NCBI GenBank assembly: GCA_965261735.1
Contig: OZ253470.1
Location: 3,584,001-3,648,000, forward strand
Direction of reading: 5' to 3'
Origin: Alphaproteobacteria bacterium
Lineage (GTDB): Bacteria; Pseudomonadota; Alphaproteobacteria; SHVV01
Length of the DNA: 64,000 nt
This document shows positions 4,001 through 63,832 of the stretch, piece after piece. Below the pieces are notes generated by a model. That model was not told where the DNA came from. It did not search any database and was given only the letters and a program-made list of their open reading frames with translations. The number at the start of each line of letters is the position of its first letter. Positions within the stretch are counted from its first letter, which is position 1. The translations under genes and the position numbers were made by a program.

Positions 4001-4230
4001 GATGTGTGGCCTCTGTTGTTCCCCGAACCGAAACAGTCTCCTAAGGCCACTACATATAGTGCCCTTTTACCCATGTGTATACTACAGGCGGCTCCAAAGG
4101 CCCTGTTTTAAAGGACTTCGTTGTGGGCAGGCGTTGAAAGCCATCAATGCGGTGGCTTGAGCGTGTTGCCATTCCGCGCGTATGCAGTTGACGCCGGTCG
4201 TGTGGTACACGCGGGTGCCTCGGCGATCGC

Positions 4231-5664
4231 GGTCGTGTCCCAGGACGTGGTGTAGGAGTTGTTGGAGCCTCTGGTAGCTGTGGGTAGGCGGCTTGCCGTA
4301 GCGACCGCCGAGAGTCTGGCGTAGGCAAGCCGGCTATCCACAGCGGAGGCCATCGCGGTTCCGGTTTAGGGTTGGGCTAGTGCAAACCAACCTGACCCGA
4401 AGGAGAACCACGATGACCCAGGACATGATGACCCTGCGCGCGCTTTTGGAGAAGAGCTCCGATGCCGATCTGCTTTGCGAGATGATCGGCTTCACGGCCG
4501 AGCGGCTGATGGCACTGGAGGTTGAGGGCCTGACCGGCGCCGGGCACGGCGAGCGCTCGGCGGATCGTATCACCCATCGCAACGGCTACCGCGACCGGTC
4601 CTGGGAGACGCGGGCCGGCACGGTCGAGCTGAAGATCCCGAAGCTGAGGAAGGGAAGCTACTTCCCGGGCTTCCTGGAGCCGCGGCGGATGGCCGAGAAG
4701 GCGCTGGCTGCGGTGATCCAGGAGGCCTACATCCAGGGGGTGTCGACCCGCTCGGTTGACGATCTGGTTCAGGCGATGGGGATGTCGGGCGCCTCCAAGA
4801 GCCAGGTCTCCAGGCTGTGCGGCGAGATCGACGATAAGGTCAACGGCTTCCTCGATCGACCGCTGGAGGGCGACTGGCCCTATCTGTGGCTCGACGCCAC
4901 CTACGTGAAGGTGCGCCAGACCGGACGCATCGTCTCGGTCGCGGTGACCGTGGCTGTGGCCGTCAACGACCAAGGCCGCCGCGAGGTCCTGGGCGTGGCG
5001 ATCGGCGCGTCGGAGGCCGAGACCTTCTGGACCGAGTTCCTGCGCTCGCTGGCCCGGCGCGGGCTGCGCGGCGTGAAGCTGGTGATCTCCGACGCCCACA
5101 AGGGCCTGAAGGCCGCCGCGACCCGGATCCTCGGCGCCACATGGCAGCGCTGCCGCGTGCACTTCGCCCGCAACCTGCTGGCCCATGCCGGCCGCCAGGG
5201 CCGGCGCGTCGTCTCCGCCTTCGCCCAGGAGGACGCCGACAGCGCGAAGGTCCAGTGGCGCCAGGTCGCCGACCAGCTCAGGCCCAAGGTGCCCAAGCTG
5301 GCAGTTCTCATGGACGAAGCCGAGCACGACGTCCTCGCCTACATGAGCTTCCCCAGGGAGCACCGCCAGAAATTGCACTCCACAAACCCGATCGAACGGC
5401 TCCATGCCGAGGTCAAGCGTCGCACCAACGTCGTCGGTATCTTTCCCAACGAAGCCGCCATCACACGGCTCGTCGGCGCCATCCTTCTCGAGCAGAACGA
5501 CGAGTGGGCCGTCTCAAGGAGATACATGACGCTGGAATCCATCGCTCCGCTGAGCGATGGTGTCCCCATCACGCTGCCCACCGTGGCAGCCTGAACGTCC
5601 CGGCCCTACCCGCCGGGAGCCGCGTAGAGCGCAACGCTCTTACACCACTCCGCGGGACACGATC
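4231..5664 (+). mobile_element. IS256-family element, type 1, complete (1434 bp; transposase ORF 4380-5594, likely start 4413)
   Basis: TIRs GGTCGTGTCCCAGGACGTGGTGTAGGAG / GATCGTGTCCCGCGGAGTGGTGTAAGAG; 8-bp TSD GCGATCGC; motifs [20 protein letters not shown]. Confidence 0.97.
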
Positions 5665-10948: not shown

Positions 10949-12053
10949 CTTGTCTATCCGGTTAACGCCCATGACCGCTACATGTAGGGTGCCGCCACTC
11001 TCCCGAGTAAAGCTCGGCATAGGTTGGAGCAGAGGTGTCGCCCGCGATGCCGAGCAATGAGCGGAAGGCGTTGAACGGGTAGAACCGCCTGTTGAAGCGG
11101 AAGGTGAACTCGTTGAGGTAGGCTTGTAGGTGCTGGTGGCTAACGCCGTGGTGGATACCGATCAGCCACGTCTTCAGGTTGGCGAAAACCAGATGGATGA
11201 TCGGCAGGTATTGCTCGGCAACCTCTGGATCACCACACTCGGCAACAGCGAAGTGCTCATAGCCGCGCTTCCCGAGGCCAGCATAGCCGCTCCAATCGTC
11301 AGTAACGATCAGCGATCGCGGCGCGACGGTGCTCTCGACGAACCCACAGAGCGACTCGGCGCTACGGTCGAGCACGACGGCGAGCCGAACGCGTCCGGCA
11401 TAGCGTCCGTCTTTCCGGTTGTCGAGCTTGGTGTCCGGCTTTCGATGACGCACCTCGATGGCACAGGAGACGGGAACCTTGTGATGAACACCACGGCCTT
11501 CCCCACGCGTTCGCCCGCCAACCCAGGTTTCGTCCACCTCAACATGGTTCTTGGGCTGTCCACCGATCCTGTCTTGGTTGGGCCGCACCATGCCCGAGCG
11601 GAGCTTGTGGAGAATTTGAAAGGCCGTCTCGTAGCGCGAAAGACCAAGTTGCCGCTGAAACTGCACGGCGGACATGCCGGGCGTCTGACTGGCGACCAGA
11701 TAAGCGGCCCAGAACCAGACGTTCAGCGGAGTGTGGCTACGCTCCATCACTGTTCCCACCGTCAGCCCGGTGTTCTGGCGGCACTTGCGGCAGCGCAGGA
11801 CGCCAGGGCGGTTTTCAAAGTGGAACGGCTCTCCCGCCGTGCCGCAGTGCGGGCAGGCAAAGCCGTCTCCCCAGCGGGCTTTCTCCAGGTAGGCGGCGCA
11901 GGCCGCATCATCGGGGAAAAGTCGCTGGAACTCGGGTAGCGAATGCGGGAATGGGAGATCGGCGCGGTCGAGAACATCCATGGCGCGCTCCCCTATATCC
12001 GGGTTGCGCCCATTCTAGCCCTAGTGGGTGTGGGTGTAAACCGGATAGGCAAG
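10949..12053 (-). mobile_element. IS1595 (ISSod11 group), complete; transposase 10962-11981
   Basis: TIR CTTG(C/T)CTATCCGGTT; TSD GTTGTAAT; CPHC...CRKC, EVDETW, VTDDW, YLNEFTFRFN. Confidence 0.96.
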
Positions 12054-17042: not shown

Positions 17043-19849
17043 GGTCGTGTCCCAGGACGTGGTGTAGGAGTTGTTGGAGCCTCTGGTAGCTGTGGGTAGG
17101 CGGCTTGCCGTAGCGACCGCCGAGAGTCTGGCGTAGGCAAGCCGGCTATCCACAGCGGAGGCCATCGCGGTTCCGGTTTAGGGTTGGGCTAGTGCAAACC
17201 AACCTGACCCGAAGGAGAACCACGATGACCCAGGACATGATGACCCTGCGCGCGCTTTTGGAGAAGAGCTCCGATGCCGATCTGCTTTGCGAGATGATCG
17301 GCTTCACGGCCGAGCGGCTGATGGCACTGGAGGTTGAGGGCCTGACCGGCGCCGGGCACGGCGAGCGCTCGGCGGATCGTATCACCCATCGCAACGGCTA
17401 CCGCGACCGGTCCTGGGAGACGCGGGCCGGCACGGTCGAGCTGAAGATCCCGAAGCTGAGGAAGGGAAGCTACTTCCCGGGCTTCCTGGAGCCGCGGCGG
17501 ATGGCCGAGAAGGCGCTGGCTGCGGTGATCCAGGAGGCCTACATCCAGGGGGTGTCGACCCGCTCGGTCGACGATCTGGTTCAGGCGATGGGGATGTCGG
17601 GCGCCTCCAAGAGCCAGGTCTCCAGGCTGTGCGGCGAGATCGACGATAAGGTCACCGGCTTCCTCGATCGACCGCTGGAGGGCGACTGGCCCTATCTGTG
17701 GCTCGACGCCACCTACGTGAAGGTGCGCCAGACCGGACGCATCGTCTCGGTCGCGGTGACCGTGGCTGTGGCCGTCAACGACCAAGGCCGCCGCGAGGTC
17801 CTGGGCGTGGCGATCGGCGCGTCGGAGGCCGAGACCTTCTGGACCGAGTTCCTGCGCTCGCTGGCCCGGCGCGGGCTGCGCGGCGTGAAGCTGGTGATCT
17901 CCGACGACCACAAGGGCCTGAAGGCCGCCGCGACCCGGATCCTCGGCGCCACATGGCAGCGCTGCCGCGTGCACTTCGCCCGCAACCTGCTGGCCCATGC
18001 CGGCCGCCAGGGCCGGCGCGTCGTCTCCGCCTTCGCCCAGGAGGACGCCGACAGCGCGAAGGTCCAGTGGCGCCAGGTCGCCGACCAGCTCAGGCCCAAG
18101 GTGCCCAAGCTGGCAGTTCTCATGGACGAAGCCGAGCACGACGTCCTCGCCTACATGAGCTTCCCCAGGGAGCACCGCCAGAAATTGCACTCCACAAACC
18201 CGATCGAACGTGTGTGGACGCCCCCGTTGATGCAAGCAGTTTTTGGTCGGCTCGGTGCATGCGGTCAGGTGCTGTCGTGTGTCCGGCCTCTCTATGCGGC
18301 AGATGACACGCCGCGGGCCCGTATGGAGATACGCGGATTGGGTCCAAATCGGTTACGCGAGCTTGAAAGCTCTCCGTTCGGATGCTGGTTTTCCCAACCC
18401 GGTCTCGTTGACCTTTGCCCTTACCTGTCCTCCGTCCTGCCCACATCCCCGACGGCTTCCCGCACTTCGCCGTTCTCTCAGGCGGTGGCGGGAGCCCGGT
18501 AGCTCTTCTTCTTCGTCAGTAGCACCCAGACGATGCGCGCCATCCTGTTGGCCAGCGCCACCGCGACGAGCATCCTCGGCTTGCGCGCCAGCATCCCGGC
18601 CAGCCAGGGGTCCGTCGTCACGCCGCGCCGAACCGCCCAGCGGACCACAGTCATCGCGCCTGTGATCAGCAGCCGTCTCAGATCGCGCTGGCCCATCTTC
18701 GATATCTTGCCCAGCTTCGGCTTGCCGCCGGTCGTGTGCTGGCGCGGCACGAGGCCGAGCCAAGCGGAGAAGTCGCGGCCGCGCCGGAAACTCTCCATCG
18801 GCGGTGCGAAGGCCTGGATTGCCATCGCGCTGATCGGCCCGATCCCCGGCACGCTCATCAGGCGCCTCGCCTCCTCATCCTGCCGTGCTCTCACGTGGAC
18901 CTCCCTCTCCAGGCCCGCAATCTTCGCATCGAGGCCGGCGATCTGCTCAAGCAGAAGGCCGGCCAGCTCGCGGACCGCTTCCGGCAACCTCGAAGCCGGT
19001 CCCTCAAGCGCCGAGGCCAGCCGGCCGACATGAGCCGGCCCTGTGGGGCAATGACACCGAACTCCGCCAGATGGCCGCGCAGCGCATTAATCGTCTGGGT
19101 GCGCTGGCGCACCAGAAGATCGCGCGTCCGGAACAGCATGCCCCGAGCCTGCTGTTCCTCCGTCTTCACAGCCACAAAGCGCATGGTCGGCCGCGACGAC
19201 GCCTCGCAGATCGCCTCCGCATCCGACGCGTCGTTCTTTTGCCGCTTGACGTACGCTTTGACGTAGATCGGTGGGACCAGTCGCACCGCATGGCCGAGAC
19301 TGCCGATCTCCCGGCCCCAATGGTGCGCGCCGCCGCACGCCTCCATCGCCACCGTGCAGCGTGGCTGCGCAGCCACAAAGTCCAACAGCTTCGCCCGGCT
19401 CAGCTTCTTGCGGAACGCAACCGACCCATCCGCCCGCGCACCGTGCAGCTGAAAGCTGTTCTTCGCCAGATCGATCCCGATCATGTGAACCTGTTCCATG
19501 GACGCCCCCATCCTCGCTTGGCGTTAACAACACCGCCAACCTGGCACATCGCGATGCCGTCGGGAGGGGCGTCCACCCCATCGGCTCCATGCCGAGGTCA
19601 AGCGTCGCACCAACGTCGTCGGTATCTTTCCCAACGAAGCCGCCATCACACGGCTCGTCGGCGCCATCCTTCTCGAGCAGAACGACGAGTGGGCCGTCTC
19701 AAGGAGATACATGACGCTGGAATCCATCGCTCCGCTGAGCGATGGTGTCCCCATCACGCTGCCCACCGTGGCAGCCTGAACGTCCCGGCCCTACCCGCCG
19801 GGAGCCGCGTAGAGCGCAACGCTCTTACACCACTCCGCGGGACACGATC
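17043..19849 (+). mobile_element. IS256 type 1 disrupted by IS1111
   Basis: Both TIRs present; interrupted at TNPIE|RL; flanks GCTACACG / CTGGCTGA do not match. Confidence 0.95.
18211..19583 (-). mobile_element. IS110 family (IS1111 group) copy 1; transposase frameshifted
   Basis: Subterminal IR GTGGACGCCCC, 7 nt from the left end and 3 nt from the right end; CG core; ORF split into 18891-19511 and 18478-18987. Confidence 0.95.
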
Positions 19850-48748: not shown

Positions 48749-49780
48749 TCAGACCGCCTGCGCGGCCTCGACGAGACGGCCGAGCTTGGCACGCGTCAGT
48801 TCGATTCCCAACATGATGAGCCCGCAGTCGGGCGCGGCCATCAGCCGGTCAGCGTCGATGCGGTCGAGCGCCGCCCGCAGGCGTGCGACGATCTCGTCGA
48901 CCGTCTCAACCCGGCTGGAGGCGATCTCGACGACGCCGAGGATGACCGTGGTGCGGGAAAACGCGTCGAGCAGGGCAAGATCGTTGTGCCGGTGCGCATC
49001 CTCGATGGAGACAGCGTCCACGATGCTGGCGTCCACCGCGCGGGCGAGCCGTCGGTAGACCTCCGGATCGGCCTTCACGTAGTCGGTCTCGTCCAGCATG
49101 TCGGGATAGCCGCAGCACATGTGCATGGTACGGGTCACGCCGCCGGGGACGCCGTGGAAGCAGCGCTCGAGATTTTCGACCCCGAAGTCGAGCGCCTGGT
49201 CCGGCAGGCGCGCGAAGAGCGGCTCGTCGACCTGGATGTGGCGGCACCCCGCCTCCGCCAGGCGTCTGATCTCCACGTTGAGCGCCCCGGCCAGATCGGC
49301 GCACCAGGAACGGTGGTTGGCATAGAAGACGTTGGCGGTCGAGTCCGCGATCGTGAGCGGTCCGGGCACGGTGATCTTGACGGGCCTGTTCGTCGCCGCC
49401 TGCGCGACCTCCCAATCGCGCACCAGGAACGGTTCGCGCGCCGCGACTTTGCCCGTGAAGGTGGGCATCTCGGCCGTCCAGGCACCGTTGCGCATGGTGC
49501 ACTCGGTTAACGTATCGAGTTCGAAGCCGTCGAGATGGCTGCAGTGGTAGCGGATGTAGTTCGCCCGCCGGATCTCGCCGTCGGTCGGGATGTCGATTCC
49601 GATAGCGGCCTGCTCGGCCACGACCTCTCGTGTCGCACGGTCGAAAGCGGCCCGCCGCTCCTCCGGCGACAAGTCCCCGGCCTCGACCTCGCCGACCTCG
49701 ACGTTCTCGTGCATCCAGGCAGTGCGCGGCACATAGCGCGGTTTGGGATAGGAGCCGATGCAGGTGGTCACGAGCGGCAT
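48749..49780 (-). CDS. Cobalamin-independent methionine synthase II-like (core catalytic domain)
   Basis: TTCIGSYPKP, TDGEIRR, IQVDEP, HMCCGY, PDCGL Zn ligands. Confidence 0.92.
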   Translation of the reverse strand: MPLVTTCIGSYPKPRYVPRTAWMHENVEVGEVEAGDLSPEERRAAFDRATREVVAEQAAIGIDIPTDGEIRRANYIRYHCSHLDGFELDTLTECTMRNGAWTAEMPTFTGKVAAREPFLVRDWEVAQAATNRPVKITVPGPLTIADSTANVFYANHRSWCADLAGALNVEIRRLAEAGCRHIQVDEPLFARLPDQALDFGVENLERCFHGVPGGVTRTMHMCCGYPDMLDETDYVKADPEVYRRLARAVDASIVDAVSIEDAHRHNDLALLDAFSRTTVILGVVEIASSRVETVDEIVARLRAALDRIDADRLMAAPDCGLIMLGIELTRAKLGRLVEAAQAV

Positions 49781-49867
49781 GGACGGCCCCCTGGGTTGTG
49801 GCTCGGTTCCGAATTTTGATCCCCACGGTCTACACGAATTCAATAACCGAGGGGGCCGCTCCAAGCA

Positions 49868-50420
49868 TCAACTCTTCGCTCGCTTCATCTCAGGGTCGTA
49901 GAGCGGACCGCTTTGCAGCTTGCACGGGACGCGTTCGTCCGCCACTTCGAGCTCGAAGTCCAGCTTCGATCCCCTGATCCTGGCAGACGGCAAGACCGAC
50001 CTCTTCGTGGTCGCGCCCGAGGAGACCATCGAGCACGTCGAGGGCTGGCTGCGCCTGTGGGTCGCCATCCCCAACGCCGTCGCCGGTATCAACGGGAACT
50101 CGCCTTCTTCCGCAAGCACCGCCAGCGCATGCGTTACCACGCCCTGAAGGCAGAGGGCGTCGCCATCGGCTCAGGCGTGGTCGAGGCGGCCAACAAGACC
50201 CTGGTGACCCAGCGCATGAAGCGCTCCGGCATGCGCTGGCGGATCGCCGGCGGACAGGCTGTGCTGACCTTCCGCGCCCTGATCAAATCCGCTCGCTTCG
50301 ACCGGGCATGGAAGGCCATCATCGGCGCAACCGACACACCAGCCAACGACAACATCAATCCCTGTGCCGTCATCGCCATCGCTGCCTGAACTCAATGAAC
50401 GAAGCCACTGCTATCAACTG
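49868..50420. pseudogene. Three fused scraps: GcvT-family C-terminus (-), traG paralogue (+, ~49959-50090), ISKra4-like 3' end (+, ~50091-50420)
   Basis: PLYDPEMKRAKS; FDPLILADGKTDLFVVAPEET; IGSGVVEAANK...KRSGMRW. Confidence 0.8.
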
Positions 50421-50449
50421 GGATTCCCCATGTTGGAACCGATCCACGC

Positions 50450-52003
50450 GGTCGTGTCCCAGGACGTGGTGTAGGAGTTGTTGGAGCCTCTGGTAGCTGT
50501 GGGTAGGCGGCTTGCCGTAGCGACCGCCGAGAGTCTGGCGTAGGCAAGCCGGCTATCCACAGCGGAGGCCATCGTGTGTGGACGCCCCCGTTGATGCAAG
50601 CAGTTTTTGGTCGGCTCGGTGCATGCGGTCAGGTGCTGTCGTGTGTCCGGCCTCTCTATGCGGCAGATGACACGCCGCGGGCCCGTATGGAGATACGCGG
50701 ATTGGGTCCAAATCGGTTACGCGAGCTTGAAAGCTCTCCGTTCGGATGCTGGTTTTCCCAACCCGGTCTCGTTGACCTTTGCCCTTACCTGTCCTCCGTC
50801 CTGCCCACATCCCCGACGGCTTCCCGCACTTCGCCGTTCTCTCAGGCGGTGGCGGGAGCCCGGTAGCTCTTCTTCTTCGTCAGTAGCGCCCAGACGATGC
50901 GCGCCATCCTGTTGGCCAGCGCCACCGCGACGAGCATCCTCGGCTTGCGCGCCAGCATCCCGGCCAGCCAGGGGTCCGTCGTCACGCCGCGCCGAACCGC
51001 CCAGCGGACCACAGTCATCGCGCCTGTGATCAGCAGCCGTCTCAGATCGCGCTGGCCCATCTTCGATATCTTGCCCAGCTTCGGCTTGCCGCCGGTCGTG
51101 TGCTGGCGCGGCACGAGGCCGAGCCAAGCGGAGAAGTCGCGGCCGCGCCGGAAACTCTCCATCGGCGGTGCGAAGGCCTGGATTGCCATCGCGCTGATCG
51201 GCCCGATCCCCGGCACGCTCATCAGGCGCCTCGCCTCCTCATCCTGCCGTGCTCTCACGTGGACCTCCCTCTCCAGGCCCGCAATCTTCGCATCGAGGCC
51301 GGCGATCTGCTCAAGCAGAAGGCCGGCCAGCTCGCGGACCGCTTCCGGCAACCTCGAAGCCGGTCCCTCAAGCGCCGAGGCCAGCCGGCCGACATGAGCC
51401 GGCCCCTGCGGGGCAATGACACCGAACTCCGCCAGATGGCCGCGCAGCGCATTAATCGTCTGGGTGCGCTGGCGCACCAGAAGATCGCGCGTCCGGAACA
51501 GCATGCCCCGAGCCTGCTGTTCCTCCGTCTTCACAGCCACAAAGCGCATGGTCGGCCGCGACGACGCCTCGCAGATCGCCTCCGCATCCGACGCGTCGTT
51601 CTTTTGCCGCTTGACGTACGCTTTGACGTAGATCGGTGGGACCAGTCGCACCGCATGGCCGAGACTGCCGATCTCCCGGCCCCAATGGTGCGCGCCGCCG
51701 CACGCCTCCATCGCCACCGTGCAGCGTGGCTGCGCAGCCACAAAGTCCAACAGCTTCGCCCGGCTCAGCTTCTTGCGGAACGCAACCAACCCATCCGCCC
51801 GCGCACCGTGCAGCTGAAAGCTGTTCTTCGCCAGATCGATCCCGATCATGTGAACCTGTTCCATGGACGCCCCCTTCCTCGCTTGGCGTTAACAACACCG
51901 CCAACCTGGCACATCGCGATGCCGTCGGGAGGGGCGTCCACCCCATCGGCTCCATGCCGAGGTCAAGCGTCGCACCAACGTCGTCGGTATCTTTCCCAAC
52001 GAG
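50450..52003 (+). mobile_element. Deleted IS256::IS1111 composite (IS256 left 125 bp + IS1111 + ~55 bp of IS256)
   Basis: IS256 left TIR at 50450; sequence jumps from GGCCATCG straight into the IS1111 end. Confidence 0.92.
50575..51948 (-). mobile_element. IS1111-group element copy 4, intact (recombinase 50842-51864)
   Basis: Same ends and 340-aa ORF as the other copies. Confidence 0.96.
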
Positions 52004-52109
52004 GCCCGCCCTGACAAAGCAGCGAGTGTCGCACCCCCGAGACCGAAGGGATCAGCGGATACCGCCGAACCCGGCCGCGAGGTCCTCGCGCGCGATGACG
52101 CCACCCATG

Positions 52110-52205
52110 ATCGGCGCGGTCGAGAACATCCATGGCGCGCTCCCCTATATCCGGTTTGCGCCCATTCTAGCCCTAGTGGGTGTGGGTGTAAACCGGATAG
52201 GCAAG
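52110..52205 (-). mobile_element. IS1595 (ISSod11 group) left-end fragment
   Basis: TIR plus the first codons MDVLDRAD. Confidence 0.88.
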
Positions 52206-52759
52206 GCTCATTCGTCTATGGTTTTCTTGCTGCCTATGACCGCGCACTCCGGAAGGCCGGGGACATCTTCGCCCGGAGGATGTCTTCTGTCTCGAACCGT
52301 CAACCTCACGACAATCCCGGATCTTGCAAGGTGCAGCCACCGCCTACGACGCCTTCGGGTCGACAATCCACACTGACTCCCTGAGGACCGTACAATCCGA
52401 GACGATCATGTCCACAACTGCGGTAATCCTCGAGAAATCATAGTCACCGCTCACCTCGGATTGGGCCAGGAACGCCCTCATGACATCGCTCTTGCCAACC
52501 AGTTCGCCATGATAGACGCCCAGTTCTTTGTGCGCGTCTTTGTGCGCGGAAATCCCGCCTGAAGCACAGCTCCTGCTTCATCACCACGAGCCCTAGGAGA
52601 CCTATTGCATCGTCAGCGGCCGCAGGCAGATGAAGATCGACGGCCGGTCGGGCCGGGCTGCGCGGTCTATACCCCGCCCACGGCCCGGCACGCCTTCCGG
52701 CGCACCGGCGTTGTCAGAGGAAAACGGTTTGAGCCACCGAGCGAGGTCTCCCACAACTC

Positions 52760-53131
52760 CTATTTCATGATGTAGAAAGCCAGCTTGTTTCCATCCAGGT
52801 CCCTGAAATACCCGCCGTAGAATCCGCTAGTGCCACGCGGGCCGGGTGCCCCCTCGTCCTTCCCCCCGAGCTCAAGAGCCTTGGCATGTAATGCATTCAC
52901 CTGCTCTTCGCTTTCGACTTTGAGCGCAATCATTGTGCCGTTGCCTACAGTAGCCGGGTCTCCATCGTAGGGCTTGGCTACGCAGAATGTCGTTTCACCC
53001 GATGGGGCCTCCCACCGGATGAAAGTTTCTGCTTCCGTTGTCCGCTTCGCTCCGATATCCCCGAGAAGCGAATCATAGAACCGGCCAGCGCGTTCAATAT
53101 CGTTTGCACCTAGAATCAAGTTTCCGATCAT
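52760..53131 (-). CDS. VOC/glyoxalase-family protein
   Basis: MIGNLILGANDIERAGRFYD...GNGTMIAL...YFRDLDGNKL. Confidence 0.9.
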   Translation of the reverse strand: MIGNLILGANDIERAGRFYDSLLGDIGAKRTTEAETFIRWEAPSGETTFCVAKPYDGDPATVGNGTMIALKVESEEQVNALHAKALELGGKDEGAPGPRGTSGFYGGYFRDLDGNKLAFYIMK

Positions 53132-53263
53132 TTCGCGATCCTTCCTCAAAATGCGGGAGCAACCCAGGAATTCCAGCTGCTTTAAGAGGTATATCAAAAA
53201 TTAGCTTATATCAATCAGTTACCAATACGGCGCACCCTAGCACCCCCCCTGCTGATCAGATGG

Positions 53264-53305: not shown

Positions 53306-54410
53306 CTTGCCTATCCGGTTTACACCCACACCCACTAGGGCTAGAATGGGCGCAACCCGGATATAGGGGAGCGCGCCATGGATGTTCTCGACCGCGCCGA
53401 TCTCCCATTCCCGCATTCGCTACCCGAGTTCCAGCGACTTTTCCCCGATGATGCGGCCTGCGCCGCCTACCTGGAGAAAGCCCGCTGGGGAGACGGCTTT
53501 GCCTGCCCGCACTGCGGCACGGCGGGAGAGCCGTTCCACTTTGAAAACCGCCCTGGCGTCCTGCGCTGCCGCAAGTGCCGCCAGAACACCGGGCTGACGG
53601 TGGGAACAGTGATGGAGCGTAGCCACACTCCGCTGAACGTCTGGTTCTGGGCCGCTTATCTGGTCGCCAGTCAGACGCCCGGCATGTCCGCCGTGCAGTT
53701 TCAGCGGCAACTTGGTCTTTCGCGCTACGAGACGGCCTTTCAAATTCTCCACAAGCTCCGCTCGGGCATGGTGCGGCCCAACCAAGACAGGATCGGTGGA
53801 CAGCCCAAGAACCATGTTGAGGTGGACGAAACCTGGGTTGGCGGGCGAACGCGTGGGGAAGGCCGTGGTGTTCACCACAAGGTTCCCGTCTCCTGTGCCA
53901 TCGAAGTGCGTCATCGAAAGCCGGGCACCAAGCTCGACAACCGGAAAGACGGACGCTATGCCGGACGCGTTCGGCTCGCCGTCGTGCTCGACCGTAGCGC
54001 CGAGTCGCTCTGTGGGTTCGTCGAGAGCACCGTCGCGCCGCGATCGCTGATCGTTACTGACGATTGGAGCGGCTATGCTGGCCTCGGTAAGCGCGGCTAT
54101 GAGCACTTCGCTGTTGCCGAGTGTGGTGATCCAGAGGTTGCCGAGCAATACCTGCCGATCATCCATCTGGTTTTCGCCAACCTGAAGACGTGGCTGATCG
54201 GTATCCACCACGGCGTTAGCCACCAGCACCTACAAGCCTACCTCAACGAGTTCACCTTCCGCTTCAACAGGCGGTTCTACCCGTTCAACGCCTTCCGCTC
54301 ATTGCTCGGCATCGCGGGCGACACCTCTGCTCCAACCTATGCCGAGCTTTACTCGGGAGAGTGGCGGCACCCTACATGTAGCGGTCATGGACGTTAACCG
54401 GATAGGCAAG
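53306..54410 (+). mobile_element. IS1595 (ISSod11 group), complete; transposase 53378-54397
   Basis: TIRs present; flanks do not match. Confidence 0.96.
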
Positions 54411-61122: not shown

Positions 61123-63832
61123 GGGGATTATATACCGGAGTCACAATTTCCTATTGCTCACCGCCTTGCGCCATGTTACAACGGAGTCACAATATAGGAG
61201 ACAGAGACATGGCAAACAAGGCACCGGGAAGGCTCACCGCAAGGGTATCTCGCTAATCGAGATCGCTGCCATGTTCCCGACCGATGGGGCGGCGGAGAGG
61301 TGGATTGAAGCCCAGCGCTGGCCCAAAGGCCCGTATTGCCCATATTGCGGCTCCTTGAACGTCCAGGTGGACATCAAACACAGTTCCATGACGCACCGTT
61401 GCCGGGACTGCCCAACCCGGCCCATGTTCTCCCTCAAAACTGGCACCGCCATGCACCGCACCCAGCTCGGTTATCGGGAATGGGCCATCGCCATTTATCT
61501 GCTGGCGACCAATCTCAAGGGCGTGTCGAGCATGAAGCTGCATCGAGACCTGAACATCACGCAAAAATCGGCATGGTATCTGGCCCATCGGCTTCGCGAG
61601 GGGTGGAAGGCCGGAAACGGCGGCATGTTCTCTGGGCCAGCAGAGGCCGATGAGACGTACCTCGGCGGGAAGCGGGCCAACATGCCTAAATCCAAGCGGA
61701 AGGCGCTGAAGGGTCGCGGAGCCATTGGGAAGACGGCGGTGGTTGGCGTAAAGGATCGGATCACGAAGCGGGTCCACGCTCAAGTTACCCCTTTCACAGA
61801 CGCAGCAACTCTGCAGTCCTTCATCCACAATCATGTCATGAGGGGGGCTGAGGTGTACACGGATGAGCATGGGGGATACAGGAATCTTAAGGGTTTCGAG
61901 CATGCATCAGTCAATCATAGCGTCGGCGAATACGTCCGAGGCATGGCGCACACCAATGGGATCGAGTCGTTTTGGAGCATGCTCAAGCGGGCGCATAAGG
62001 GCACTTTCCACAAACTTTCGGCCAAGCATCTTAACCGCTATGTGACGGAGTTCGCGGGCCATCACAACGATCGCGAGTATGATACGTTGGCAATCATGGA
62101 GCGGATCGCGTCGGGGCTGTCCGGCAAGCGGCTAGGGTGCGAGTCTCGCATGGCAGTGATGTCTGCGGCTTGGTTCGTTGAGTTCAGGCAGCGATTGCCA
62201 TGGCTGCTGCACGTGGACTGATGTTGTCGTTGGCCGGTGTGTCGGTTGCGCTGATCAGGGCCTTCCATGCGCGCTCGAAGCGGCCGGATTTGATCAGGGC
62301 GCGGAAGGTCAGAACAGCCTGTCCGCCGACGATCCGCCAGCGCATGCCGGAGCGCTTCATGCGCTGTGTCACCAGGGATCTTGTTGGCAGCCTCGACCAC
62401 GCCTGAGCCGATGGCGATGCCCTCTTCCTTCAGGGCGTGGTAGCGCATGCGATGGCGATGCTTGCGGAAGAAGGCGAGTTCCCGCTCGGTCTCGGCCCGG
62501 TCCGGCGCAGCGGCGGCATCGCGAAGGTGGCGCAGCGCCCGGATCACCTTGGCGACGCCACGGGGATCGTGACGGAGGATCTCGCGGTACTTCTCGAACC
62601 AGCCGGGCGCCACGGCATGGTCGGACGCGGTTTGCAGATGTTCGCAAGCATGCCAGAAGTCGATCACCTCGGTTTCGGGCGACAGGGTCTCCAGGAAGGT
62701 CCAGTTGTCGGCGGCGCCATCGGCGATAGCGACGATCCCGATCTCGGGGCGTGCTCGCCTGATGTGTGCGACTTCGCTTGCAAGCTGCGCCTTCAGCGTG
62801 AGCTTGCCGCTCTCCGGCATGGGGCCGAGATAGAGGGTCTTCAGGCGCTTGCCCTCGGCGTCGTGGAAGGAGACCGTGCCGCAGGCGGCCTCGCGCCAGG
62901 AGGCCTTGGCGCGACCGTCCTCGCCGGGTCTCAGCGGCACCATGACGCCGTCGAGGGAGACCGAGGCGGTGGTCGCGTCCTGCGGTATGCCCTCGGCCTC
63001 ACGGATGCTGCCCAGCGTCTCCGGGCCGAGGCTCTCCCAGCATTCGTGCATGCTCAGGGTCAGGCGCTCACCGACGGCGTCATGGCGCCGGTCTTCGCAA
63101 AGAACGCCGCCGCTTCCCGGGCCGTGCAGCGACCCATCATCAGCAGACCGAGCTCGGCCGCCGGCCGCGTCAGGTAATCGTCGACGAGGCCCAGGCTCTC
63201 GTCGACCGGCACCGGCGATGCCCCGCTCGCGCCGCTGCGGTAACGCGCTCGCCGGTAGGCGAGCGAGGTCATGATCGTCTTCGGCGTCACCGCGACCCGG
63301 AACCAGCTCTGCCCGTCCCGCTCGATCCGGGAAGCGCCATCGTCCCGGTTCTCGATGACGGCGCCCATGACATCGCGAGCGAACTCGTTCGTGGCCTCAC
63401 GCACCCGCAACTCGACCTCCTCGGGCACCTCGGGGCGCGGCTCGGAACGAAGCTCCTCGCGACACAGTGCGAGCACCCGGGCGGCCGCCTCGACGACCCG
63501 AGGAGGCAGGCCGGAAAGATCGATGGACGAAGGCGCCGGAGGCGGGGATACTGCCATGGGAATGCTCCCGATGTTGGGTTTCGAGACACGGCATCGTACC
63601 GCTTCTGGCGGTGCGGAGCGTTCCCACCTTCCCCTGCTCGACCCTGCCGTCGTGACAAAATCCTGCCTTGGAGCGGCCCATTGTCACGAATAGCCGTTTT
63701 CGGCCGTTCGTCTCGACACAAAAACCGCACTAAATCAATGACTTGGATTTTCCATACCAGACCCACACCCGGCGGCTACGCTATAGAGACCTAATCGCCG
63801 ACAATGGGCTGGACTCGGGAGCGCGGGCGTGA
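61123..63832 (+). mobile_element. IS1595 (ISNwi1-like), frameshifted and interrupted by the ISKra4-like element; right end not seen in the window
   Basis: Left end GGGGATTAT; [22 protein letters not shown]; C-terminus RYRDLIADNG resumes at 63779. Confidence 0.88.
62135..63770 (-). mobile_element. ISKra4-like element with multiple frameshifts
   Basis: Imperfect TIR GGGTGYGRGTCT; TSD AGCGGCTA / GGCGGCTA; SLDG, ADGA, DFWHACEHL, IGSGVVEAANK. Confidence 0.87.

Follow-up and report, generated by a model that had tools for sequence, protein, structure and literature searches.

Joint of an IS256-family leader to the right end of an IS1111-type element, with loss of 1043 bp, in an alphaproteobacterial genome

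Reactions of IS110-family insertion sequences (ISs) that use only part of a junction have been reported in several papers. Excision of IS621 is described as recombination between a left half, in which left target (LT) and right donor (RD) meet at the core, and a right half, in which left donor (LD) meets right target (RT), and the donor-binding loop (DBL) alone is reported to support it (Hiraizumi et al. 2026, PMC13626964). In addition, mutation of the target arm is reported not to lower excision, for which only the donor arms are needed, and a single half-site as short as a 5-bp RD motif suffices (Xie et al. 2026, bioRxiv 10.64898/2026.08.31.748434). DBL-DBL recombination of IS621 and IS622 with donor-like genomic sites has also been described (Perry et al. 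2025, bioRxiv 10.1101/2025.05.14.653916). At natural IS110 loci, partial circles were described in which one true terminus is used again and the second boundary is non-canonical (Hu et al. 2026, bioRxiv 10.64898/2026.08.14.744561), and mutation of the ISPpu9 ends is reported to lead to recombination at other core dinucleotides beyond them (Pares-Guillen et al. 2025, PMC12288879). Here we analysed a stretch of 64,000 nucleotides (the window) within the single-contig 5.03-Mb genome of an uncultured alphaproteobacterium (contig OZ253470.1, 3584001-3648000), in which an IS1111-type element adjoins the leader of a truncated IS256-family element. Coordinates refer to the window unless they are given as genome positions.

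The joint resembles the half-match and DBL-DBL reactions of IS621 and IS622/ISCro4, as these are described in the papers cited, in that a canonical donor half (LD-core) would have been combined with a partner that has the core and one donor arm (ATGG). The product likewise has the form LD-core-RD', and complementarity of the target arm appears to be dispensable. However, the IS621 and IS622 reports, as far as they describe their systems, deal with excision in vitro or on plasmids, with off-target insertions and with IS110-type elements whose bridge RNA lies upstream. The present element, in contrast, is IS1111-type with its RNA downstream, resides in an uncultured alphaproteobacterium and is accompanied by a fixed chromosomal flanking deletion, whose dependence on the recombinase we infer. 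The partial circles of Hu et al. and the alternative-end circles of ISPpu9 are also alike in that they combine a true terminus, used again, with a second boundary that is not canonical. According to those descriptions the products are circles whose second boundary is either internal to an expanded element or outside it by a few tens of bp, whereas here it lies 1043 bp outside the element and a chromosomal scar is seen.

Deletions that start exactly at one IS end, remove the flank and leave the IS in place are classical products of IS1, IS903 and other DDE elements. They result from intramolecular transposition, in which the far end need not have any particular sequence. At the present locus, in contrast, the far end mimics the other end of the element, and RNA-guided serine/DEDD recombination at a 2-bp core would apply. 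For IS110-type elements, reactions of this class have already been published, and since the papers of 2025-2026 describe half-match, DBL-DBL and alternative-end reactions, the novelty is modest. No natural flanking deletions by IS110 or IS1111 elements were found in the literature searched, although such cases may be listed in the supplements of Xie 2026, Hu 2026 and Durrant 2024. What is new is a natural case from the IS1111 branch in which chromosomal DNA beside the element was deleted.

The joint and the missing IS256 segment

Genome-wide BLAST identified more than 60 copies (87 segments) of the 1434-bp IS256-family element, the intact form of which encodes a 404-aa Transposase_mut protein (PF00872, E 1.6e-117), a Mutator-type DDE transposase. 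The IS110-family element of 1372 bp is present in 14 full and 2 partial copies that are 99.6-100% identical, and a sister family, designated B, has five copies that are 81-82% identical. Two intact composites, in which the IS1111-type element is inserted in IS256 (IS256::IS1111), lie in the window at 17043-19849 (+) and 35542-32735 (-). At the focal locus, an intact 1372-bp IS1111-type element with a core CG on each side occupies 50575-51946 on the minus strand and is 100% identical to the copy at genome position 1547538-1548910.

At the junction 50574|50575, IS256 nt 125 (..CAGCGGAGGCCAT-CG, ending at 50574) adjoins TGTGTGGACGCCCCC, which starts at 50575. The IS256 part reads GGAGGCCAT-CG and the right end of the IS1111-type element begins with TGTGTGGACG. 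The IS256 remnant comprises the 5' leader, nt 1-125 (50450-50574, plus strand; 100% identical to 4231-4355 of an intact copy), and ends in a donor-like CCAT (50569-50572) followed by the core CG (50573-50574). The novel joint itself (50573-50576) consists of this core and the first right-end bases of the element. In transposase orientation the product at 50588-50567 on the minus strand reads CCACACA-CG-ATGGCC, which is a canonical LD-core joined to a matching arm (LD-core-RD'). The other junction of the focal element reads GTCCACCCCAT-CG-GCTCCATGCC (CCCCAT-CG-GCTCCATGCC), the same as in both intact composites; the right-end junction of these composites reads GATCGAA-CG-TGTGTGG. At the focal locus, this other junction is followed by IS256 nt 1169-1222 (51949-52002, plus strand), 54 identical bases beyond which the sequence diverges, IS256 having been cut there by an unrelated event.

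At the place equivalent to the joint (4348-4362 in the reference copy), the sequence is GGCCAT-CG-CGGTTCC in five intact IS256 copies of the window. In a self-BLAST, 50447-50574 aligned to 4228-4355 and 51947-52010 aligned to 5397-5459. Compared with the composites and, by BLAST, with intact IS256, exactly 1043 bp of IS256 are missing (equivalent to 4356-5398, plus strand). A 2-bp CG is common to both deletion endpoints (4354-4355 and 5397-5398), and one copy of it was retained. The initial annotation had described this joint of an IS256 leader to an IS1111 end, the removal of the 1043 bp and the usual sequence at the other junction, and every one of these sequence statements was borne out. 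Its conclusion that the recombinase can delete host DNA, on the other hand, is overstated. The deleted DNA belonged to another IS, of which the rest of the leader with the ribosome-binding site, the start codon and about 330 codons, i.e. most of the Mutator-type transposase gene, were lost, and no host gene was affected.

We counted the corresponding motifs genome-wide and found 59 intact pseudo-sites, 58 empty standard IS256 targets, three occupied left-end junctions in IS256, two normal right-end junctions and one focal joint. Neither an IS256 copy with the deletion but without the IS nor the reciprocal circle joint was present in these counts. The pattern of right end, core and ATGG occurs once in the 5.03-Mb genome, and a 251-bp junction query matched end-to-end only at the focal locus when searched in this genome and in 35 others carrying both IS types. 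The exact 29-nt joint had no match in the JGI metagenome contigs. The shorter right end-core-ATGG pattern had eight matches there, of which seven were unrelated chance matches. The eighth was considered as a second pseudo-site event and rejected, being an ordinary insertion whose own right target guide expects CG-ATTGA.

Guide segments and the match at the pseudo-site

The element encodes a 340-aa transposase/recombinase (50842-51864, minus strand) with profile matches to the DEDD RuvC-like N-terminal domain (PF01548, E 5.7e-15) and the Transposase_20 C-terminal domain (PF02371, E 3.9e-22). In transposase orientation its left end (51865-51948, minus strand, including the core CG at 51947-51948) reads CG-ATGGG-GTGGACGCCCC.. 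and forms the usual IS256 junction, as in both composites. The right end reads ..GGGGCGTCCAC-ACA-CG. The subterminal inverted repeats thus lie 5 nt from the left end (GTGGACGCCCC) and 3 nt from the right end (GGGGCGTCCAC). A 267-bp non-coding region (NCR; 50575-50841, minus strand) follows 3' of the transposase gene and contains a predicted two-loop bridge/seekRNA and the right subterminal repeat. The core CG bounds both sides in all 14 full copies, with no duplication of the target beyond it, and the LT is GNAAC in 11 of them and GGAGC in the three copies inserted in IS256. Based on its domains, the guides in a downstream NCR, the subterminal repeats and the conserved core, we assign the element to the IS1111 subgroup of the IS110 family.

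IS1111-group elements are described as having a downstream NCR with guides that match both target strands, of which the one for the top strand comes first in the 5' to 3' direction (Siddiquee et al. 2024, PMC11187229). The focal element is like ISEc11, ISPa11 and ISKpn4, as described in that paper, in its DEDD transposase, subterminal inverted repeats, downstream NCR and guide order. It differs in belonging to another lineage, with GNAAC-CG-TTCG as target and its best amino acid identities to copies in marine metagenome-assembled genomes (MAGs). The paper describes target matches for the three elements (PMC11187229), whereas donor-loop guides were mapped in the present analysis.

The bridge/seekRNA belongs to no curated Rfam family: nothing reached the gathering threshold in the whole window, and only two sub-threshold matches lay in 50300-52200. 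The guides were therefore derived by covariation. We retrieved 80 related loci with 66-99% amino acid identity from MAGs of several phyla, in 56 of which both ends were recognisable. Family B differs from the focal family (A) in its core (TG in transposase orientation), its ends and its targets, of which there are two, and in the aligned NCRs of both families three short segments change in step with cores, ends and targets. The first, the right target guide (RTG), is CCGAACG in family A and GGTACA or GGGTCA in family B, and is complementary to core and RT. The left target guide (LTG) has the same sense as LT and core (GUAACCG in family A, CAAAAATG or CAAAATTG in family B). The left donor guide (LDG) has the same sense as LD and core (ACACACG in family A, ACAGATG in family B).

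Each assignment was checked with 7-mers across the 56 loci, the same search in the NCR of a locus with a different flank serving as control. Five LT bases plus core were found in the own NCR of 39 of the 56 loci, against 132 of 2934 controls (4.5%). The complement of the core plus five RT bases was found in 16 of the 56, against 50 of 2978 controls (1.7%), and LD plus core in 55 of the 56, against 36 of 2382 controls (1.5%). The LDG variants CACA-CG, CATA-CG, CAGA-TG and TAGA-CG covaried with the ends.

In the focal NCR, all on the minus strand, covariation thus places the RTG at 50739-50745 (CCGAACG, complementary to core and RT, CG-TTCGG), the LTG at 50712-50720 (GUAACCG followed by AU, same sense as GTAAC-CG) and the LDG at 50640-50646 (ACACACG, same sense as ..ACACA-CG). 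The RTG, complementary to the top strand, lies 5' of the LTG, which corresponds to the bottom strand. A right donor guide (RDG) is proposed at 50687-50692 (CUCCAU), where it lies opposite ATGGGG, mirrors the position of the RTG in the second loop and could pair through CCAU with the invariant ATGG of the left end. In the resolved loci the RD is ATGG[G/A/T]G and the guide C[U/A]CCAU, except for two loci with AGGGAG as RD. Position 5 of the RD was often mismatched among the 56 loci and does not covary, so the pairing of ATGG with CCAU is the dependable part. In the consensus fold, the guide segments lie in two internal loops closed by conserved stems. Compensatory changes were seen in only 3 of the 33 stem pairs because the stems are nearly invariant. 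The two exceptional loci belong to one relative (L021, 787-820, and L022, 2192-2246), which has LT GCCAGACT, core CG, RD AGGGAG and RT AGGGCGG, so that RT and RD both start with AGGG.

With this map we compared the site that was lost. It is represented in the reference IS256 copy by CCAT-CG-CGGTTCC (4350-4362, plus strand) and reads GGAACCG-CG-ATGGCC in transposase orientation. In the register fixed by the product, the right arm has CG followed by ATGG and matches all four invariant RD bases, and the left arm AACCG matches none of the five bases of GUAAC in the LTG. The LT-like GGAAC-CG matches six of the seven guide bases of GUAACCG, offset by 2 nt, which is one core-length. The earlier description of the lost site as a mimic, with a donor-like CCAT in register and a 6/7 target-guide match offset by 2 nt, therefore agrees with the mapped guides. 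Directly beside the core, the LT has AAC in 11 of the 14 copies and AGC in the three copies in IS256, whereas the pseudo-site has CCG in register. The combined LT and RT guide match of the focal copy (5/10) is the lowest of the 14. Because of this low combined match and the mismatched LT of the pseudo-site, the joint is not the product of ordinary target-guided insertion, and its arms identify it as a donor-arm (RD-only) half-match.

Such a match is rare. In IS256 nt 1-1168, only 2 of 136 CG dinucleotides have at least four contiguous donor-arm matches; the used site has four. Genome-wide, CCAT precedes 0.54% of CG. These figures are post hoc, but the exact IS terminus at the other endpoint of the deletion is a feature additional to them.

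Two further observations concern these arms. Among the 14 copies, an LT match of 3/5 goes with an RT match of at least 4/5 and an RT match of at most 3/5 goes with an LT match of at least 4/5, with the focal copy as the only exception. In transposase orientation, the IS256 leader has GTGGATAGCC (50546-50555) 9 nt past the pseudo-arm; it is similar to GTGGACGCC, the subterminal repeat at the true left end, a likeness that may be due to chance (a 5-mer within 20 nt). Other RT-mismatched copies, at genome positions 1545814, 1700627, 3690420 and 4466650, were considered as adjacent deletions and rejected. In-silico removal of the IS restores long open frames at these sites (505 + at least 1499 nt across the site at 4466650), which is suggestive of simple LT-guided insertions, and only suggestive in a genome of 66% GC.

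Origin of the joint

We consider it reasonably probable that the recombinase joined the true right junction to a pseudo-left junction in cis. The parent would have been an IS256::IS1111 composite like the two remaining in the window, with the element in the standard IS1111 target of IS256 (GATCGAA-CG-GCTCCAT, 5390-5405, plus strand, core at 5397-5398; empty in the 58 copies counted above). Its right junction (LD-core-RT, CCACACA-CG-TTCGATCG) would synapse with the IS256-leader site GGAACCG-CG-ATGGCC 1043 bp away, which could mimic a left junction through its core CG and ATGG. Strand exchange at the core would then leave LD-core-RD' (CCACACA-CG-ATGGCC) on the chromosome, and the intervening 1043 bp would be lost as a circle or displaced strand. 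As the pseudo-site has no in-register pairing through its target arm, recognition probably involved the donor-binding loop alone, in a DBL-DBL type synapse. Under copy-out models, as outlined by Sun et al. 2025 and Xie et al. 2026, exchange of the top strand only, followed by replication, would produce the same deletion in one daughter. The context is in line with this reaction: both intact composites lie within 35 kb, and three IS256 copies carry the IS at the same site. The excision-type reaction at a pseudo-end that the initial annotation had proposed thus stands in part. Use of a donor-like pseudo-end by the recombinase is well supported by the exact terminus and by ATGG in register, and the one-step course is unproven against a two-step route.

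Several points weigh against such a cis reaction. The focal IS differs from the copies in the two extant composites at 3 and 5 of 18 variable sites, and the focal IS256 piece differs from that of the composites by one single-nucleotide polymorphism (SNP), so the focal IS is not a direct descendant of either. The event is single: the right end-core-ATGG joint does not recur in this genome, and the pattern had no match in five related genomes. Every IS256 copy also contains ACCCAT-CG (4574-4581), which has five contiguous donor-arm matches and lies 224 bp nearer to the IS1111 target, and no deletion using this better match was seen. The match statistics are post hoc. In addition, the proposed RDG was assigned by position and complementarity and not by covariation, which ATGG and CCAU, being invariant in the resolved loci, could not provide. 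Finally, a two-step route would give an identical product.

A stronger form of the cis reaction, in which both RNA loops engaged the pseudo-site, with the LTG on GGAAC-CG and the RDG setting the cleavage register on the second CG, is unlikely in our view. Apart from its duplicated core, the IS256 leader sequence GGAAC-CG-CG-ATGG does come close to a perfect left junction (LT 4/5, core, RD 4/4). If both loops were engaged, a natural bridge recombinase would tolerate a 2-nt shift between target and donor half-sites, and each of the 59 IS256 copies would contain, 1043 bp from the preferred IS1111 target, an inherent partner for deletion. Insertion of the IS1111-type element would then predispose IS256 to self-destruction, as would already have happened in one of the three occupied copies, and cis deletions would be predicted beside integrated cargo in bridge editing.

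The two-step route has a real but small chance of being correct. A second IS1111 copy would have inserted off-target at the pseudo-site of a composite, and homologous recombination between the two direct copies would have removed one of them together with the 1043 bp. In a variant, the copy would have inserted into an IS256 that lacked the element, and the recombinase would then have acted locally on the standard target. Direct repeats of 1.37 kb are good substrates for recombination, and the product is identical by construction. The identity of the focal IS to the distant copy at genome position 1547538, and not to the composite copies, fits an incoming copy; the SNP pattern of the IS copies as such does not discriminate between one step and two. 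RD-only sites are moreover reported as the commonest class of IS621 off-target insertions (29.8% of sites; bioRxiv 10.64898/2026.08.31.748434). However, this route needs two rare events where one suffices. Its intermediate CCCCAT-CG-CGGTTCC was found neither in this genome nor, with up to two mismatches, in the five related genomes, and an insertion was present in none of the 59 intact pseudo-sites.

A deletion independent of the recombinase, by replication slippage or illegitimate recombination between the two CGs, is distinctly unlikely. The IS terminus would then be an endpoint by coincidence or because the subterminal repeat stalled replication. Only 2 bp of homology are strictly required and both are present, and other truncations in this IS graveyard include IS256, which breaks off at nt 1222, and the transposase fragment at 49913-50389. 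The shared CG is equally required by the recombinase model. What makes plain 2-bp microhomology unlikely is that one endpoint is the exact IS terminus: we estimate that an exact IS boundary with preserved core would be a coincidence of about 1 in 1000 per deletion in a 1.4-kb context. The partner endpoint in addition has a 4-nt donor arm, as only 2 of the 136 CG sites do.

An assembly artefact, or a minority variant promoted to the consensus in a MAG, is very improbable. The relatives found are MAGs, so the source genome may be one as well. Repeat misjoins, however, fall in shared sequence, and CG is all that the two sides have in common here. The focal IS cluster (about 49865-52760) spans only about 2.9 kb and is bracketed by unique genes (MetE-like, 48749-49864; glyoxalase family, 52760-53197), and a single 5.03-Mb contig with more than 60 copies of a 1.4-kb IS implies long reads that would span such a cluster. 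Logan contigs of four of the 24 runs listed, over 50300-50900, have no weight either way on the joint: all broke at repeats, no listed piece reached 31 or more letters into each flank of 50574|50575, loose ends at 50574 ran on as intact IS256 and those before 50573 showed other insertion sites. An earlier internal deletion of IS256 that was later hit by the IS1111-type element was rejected, since it would have to end exactly at the IS1111 core.

If the cis reaction is correct, donor-arm half-match recombination by a member of the IS1111 branch has left a fixed footprint in nature, in an environmental genome. The promiscuity of IS621 and IS622 reported in vitro and on plasmids would then leave permanent deletions beside integrated copies, and in IS-rich genomes elements could erode adjoining DNA, here another IS, without a second copy or RecA. 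For bridge editing it would mean that the LD-core-RT junction present after insertion could recombine in cis with RD-like motifs (core + 4 nt), an off-target deletion class missed by insertion-site profiling. The guide map predicts that compensatory changes between ATGG of the pseudo-site and CCAU of the RNA restore the reaction.

Junction promoter, relatives and other repeats

Junction promoters are known in the IS110 family, as described in PMC13626964 and PMC12288879. At the focal joint, the hexamers TTGCAT (50599-50594) and CACGAT (50576-50571), separated by 17 nt, lie on the minus strand (50571-50599) and point out of the IS to lower coordinates. This arrangement, which would also form at the circle junction, is recreated at the joint because the pseudo-arm starts with AT. 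The -35-like TTGCAT is conserved in families A, B and relatives. Each hexamer matches the sigma-70 consensus at three of six positions (6/12 together), and a promoter scan called none in 50300-52100. Predicted transcription would run antisense through IS256 nt 125-1 and the transposase fragment, with the MetE-like gene about 790 nt downstream on the same strand. The outward-facing hexamers noted in the initial annotation are thus present. Its statement that promoters are created is weak, the hexamers being poor matches that were not called and that face IS debris, and promoter creation by the joint is speculative.

Transposases that are 66-99% identical were found, among the 80 loci, in MAGs of Alphaproteobacteria, Binatia, Longimicrobiales/Gemmatimonadetes, Acidobacteria, Nitrospinota, Chloroflexota, Vicinamibacterales and Gammaproteobacteria. 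In genomes of other genera, nt 1-125 of IS256 and the final 128 nt of the IS1111-type element have counterparts that are 99-100% identical. Recent spread across distant hosts is suggested by these findings. The relative at L021 and L022, with 78% amino acid identity, has four copies in an IS256-type leader, about 40 bp from the equivalent of the pseudo-site (G033:C2 98737, 1800771, 2246859 and 3418306). IS1111 relatives seem to target IS256-family leaders repeatedly.

Outside the window, the genome also contains solo bridge-RNA/right-end modules without a transposase gene at genome positions 1967389-1967620 and 2960513-2960720. Their RTG (AUGAGACG and ACGAGACG, respectively) covaries with the right flank (CG-TCTCAT and CG-TCTCGT). 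These modules resemble the free-standing ssr9 module of ISPpu9.

Near the joint, 50300-50389 (plus strand) gave a sub-threshold Rfam match to the 3' part of permuted tmRNA (26 bits against a gathering threshold of 47, E 0.0073), which is also below threshold in the whole-window scan. It overlaps the end of the open reading frame at 49913-50389, the transposase fragment within the focal IS cluster, which is 91% identical to 62167-62484. On the other side, a repeat of about 98 bp at 52109-52206 is present in at least six copies that are 97-99% identical (also at 11957, 23033, 31779, 53306, 57394 and 9674). One copy adjoins an IS1595-type transposase gene (53378-54397), and the repeat is probably the end of yet another IS.

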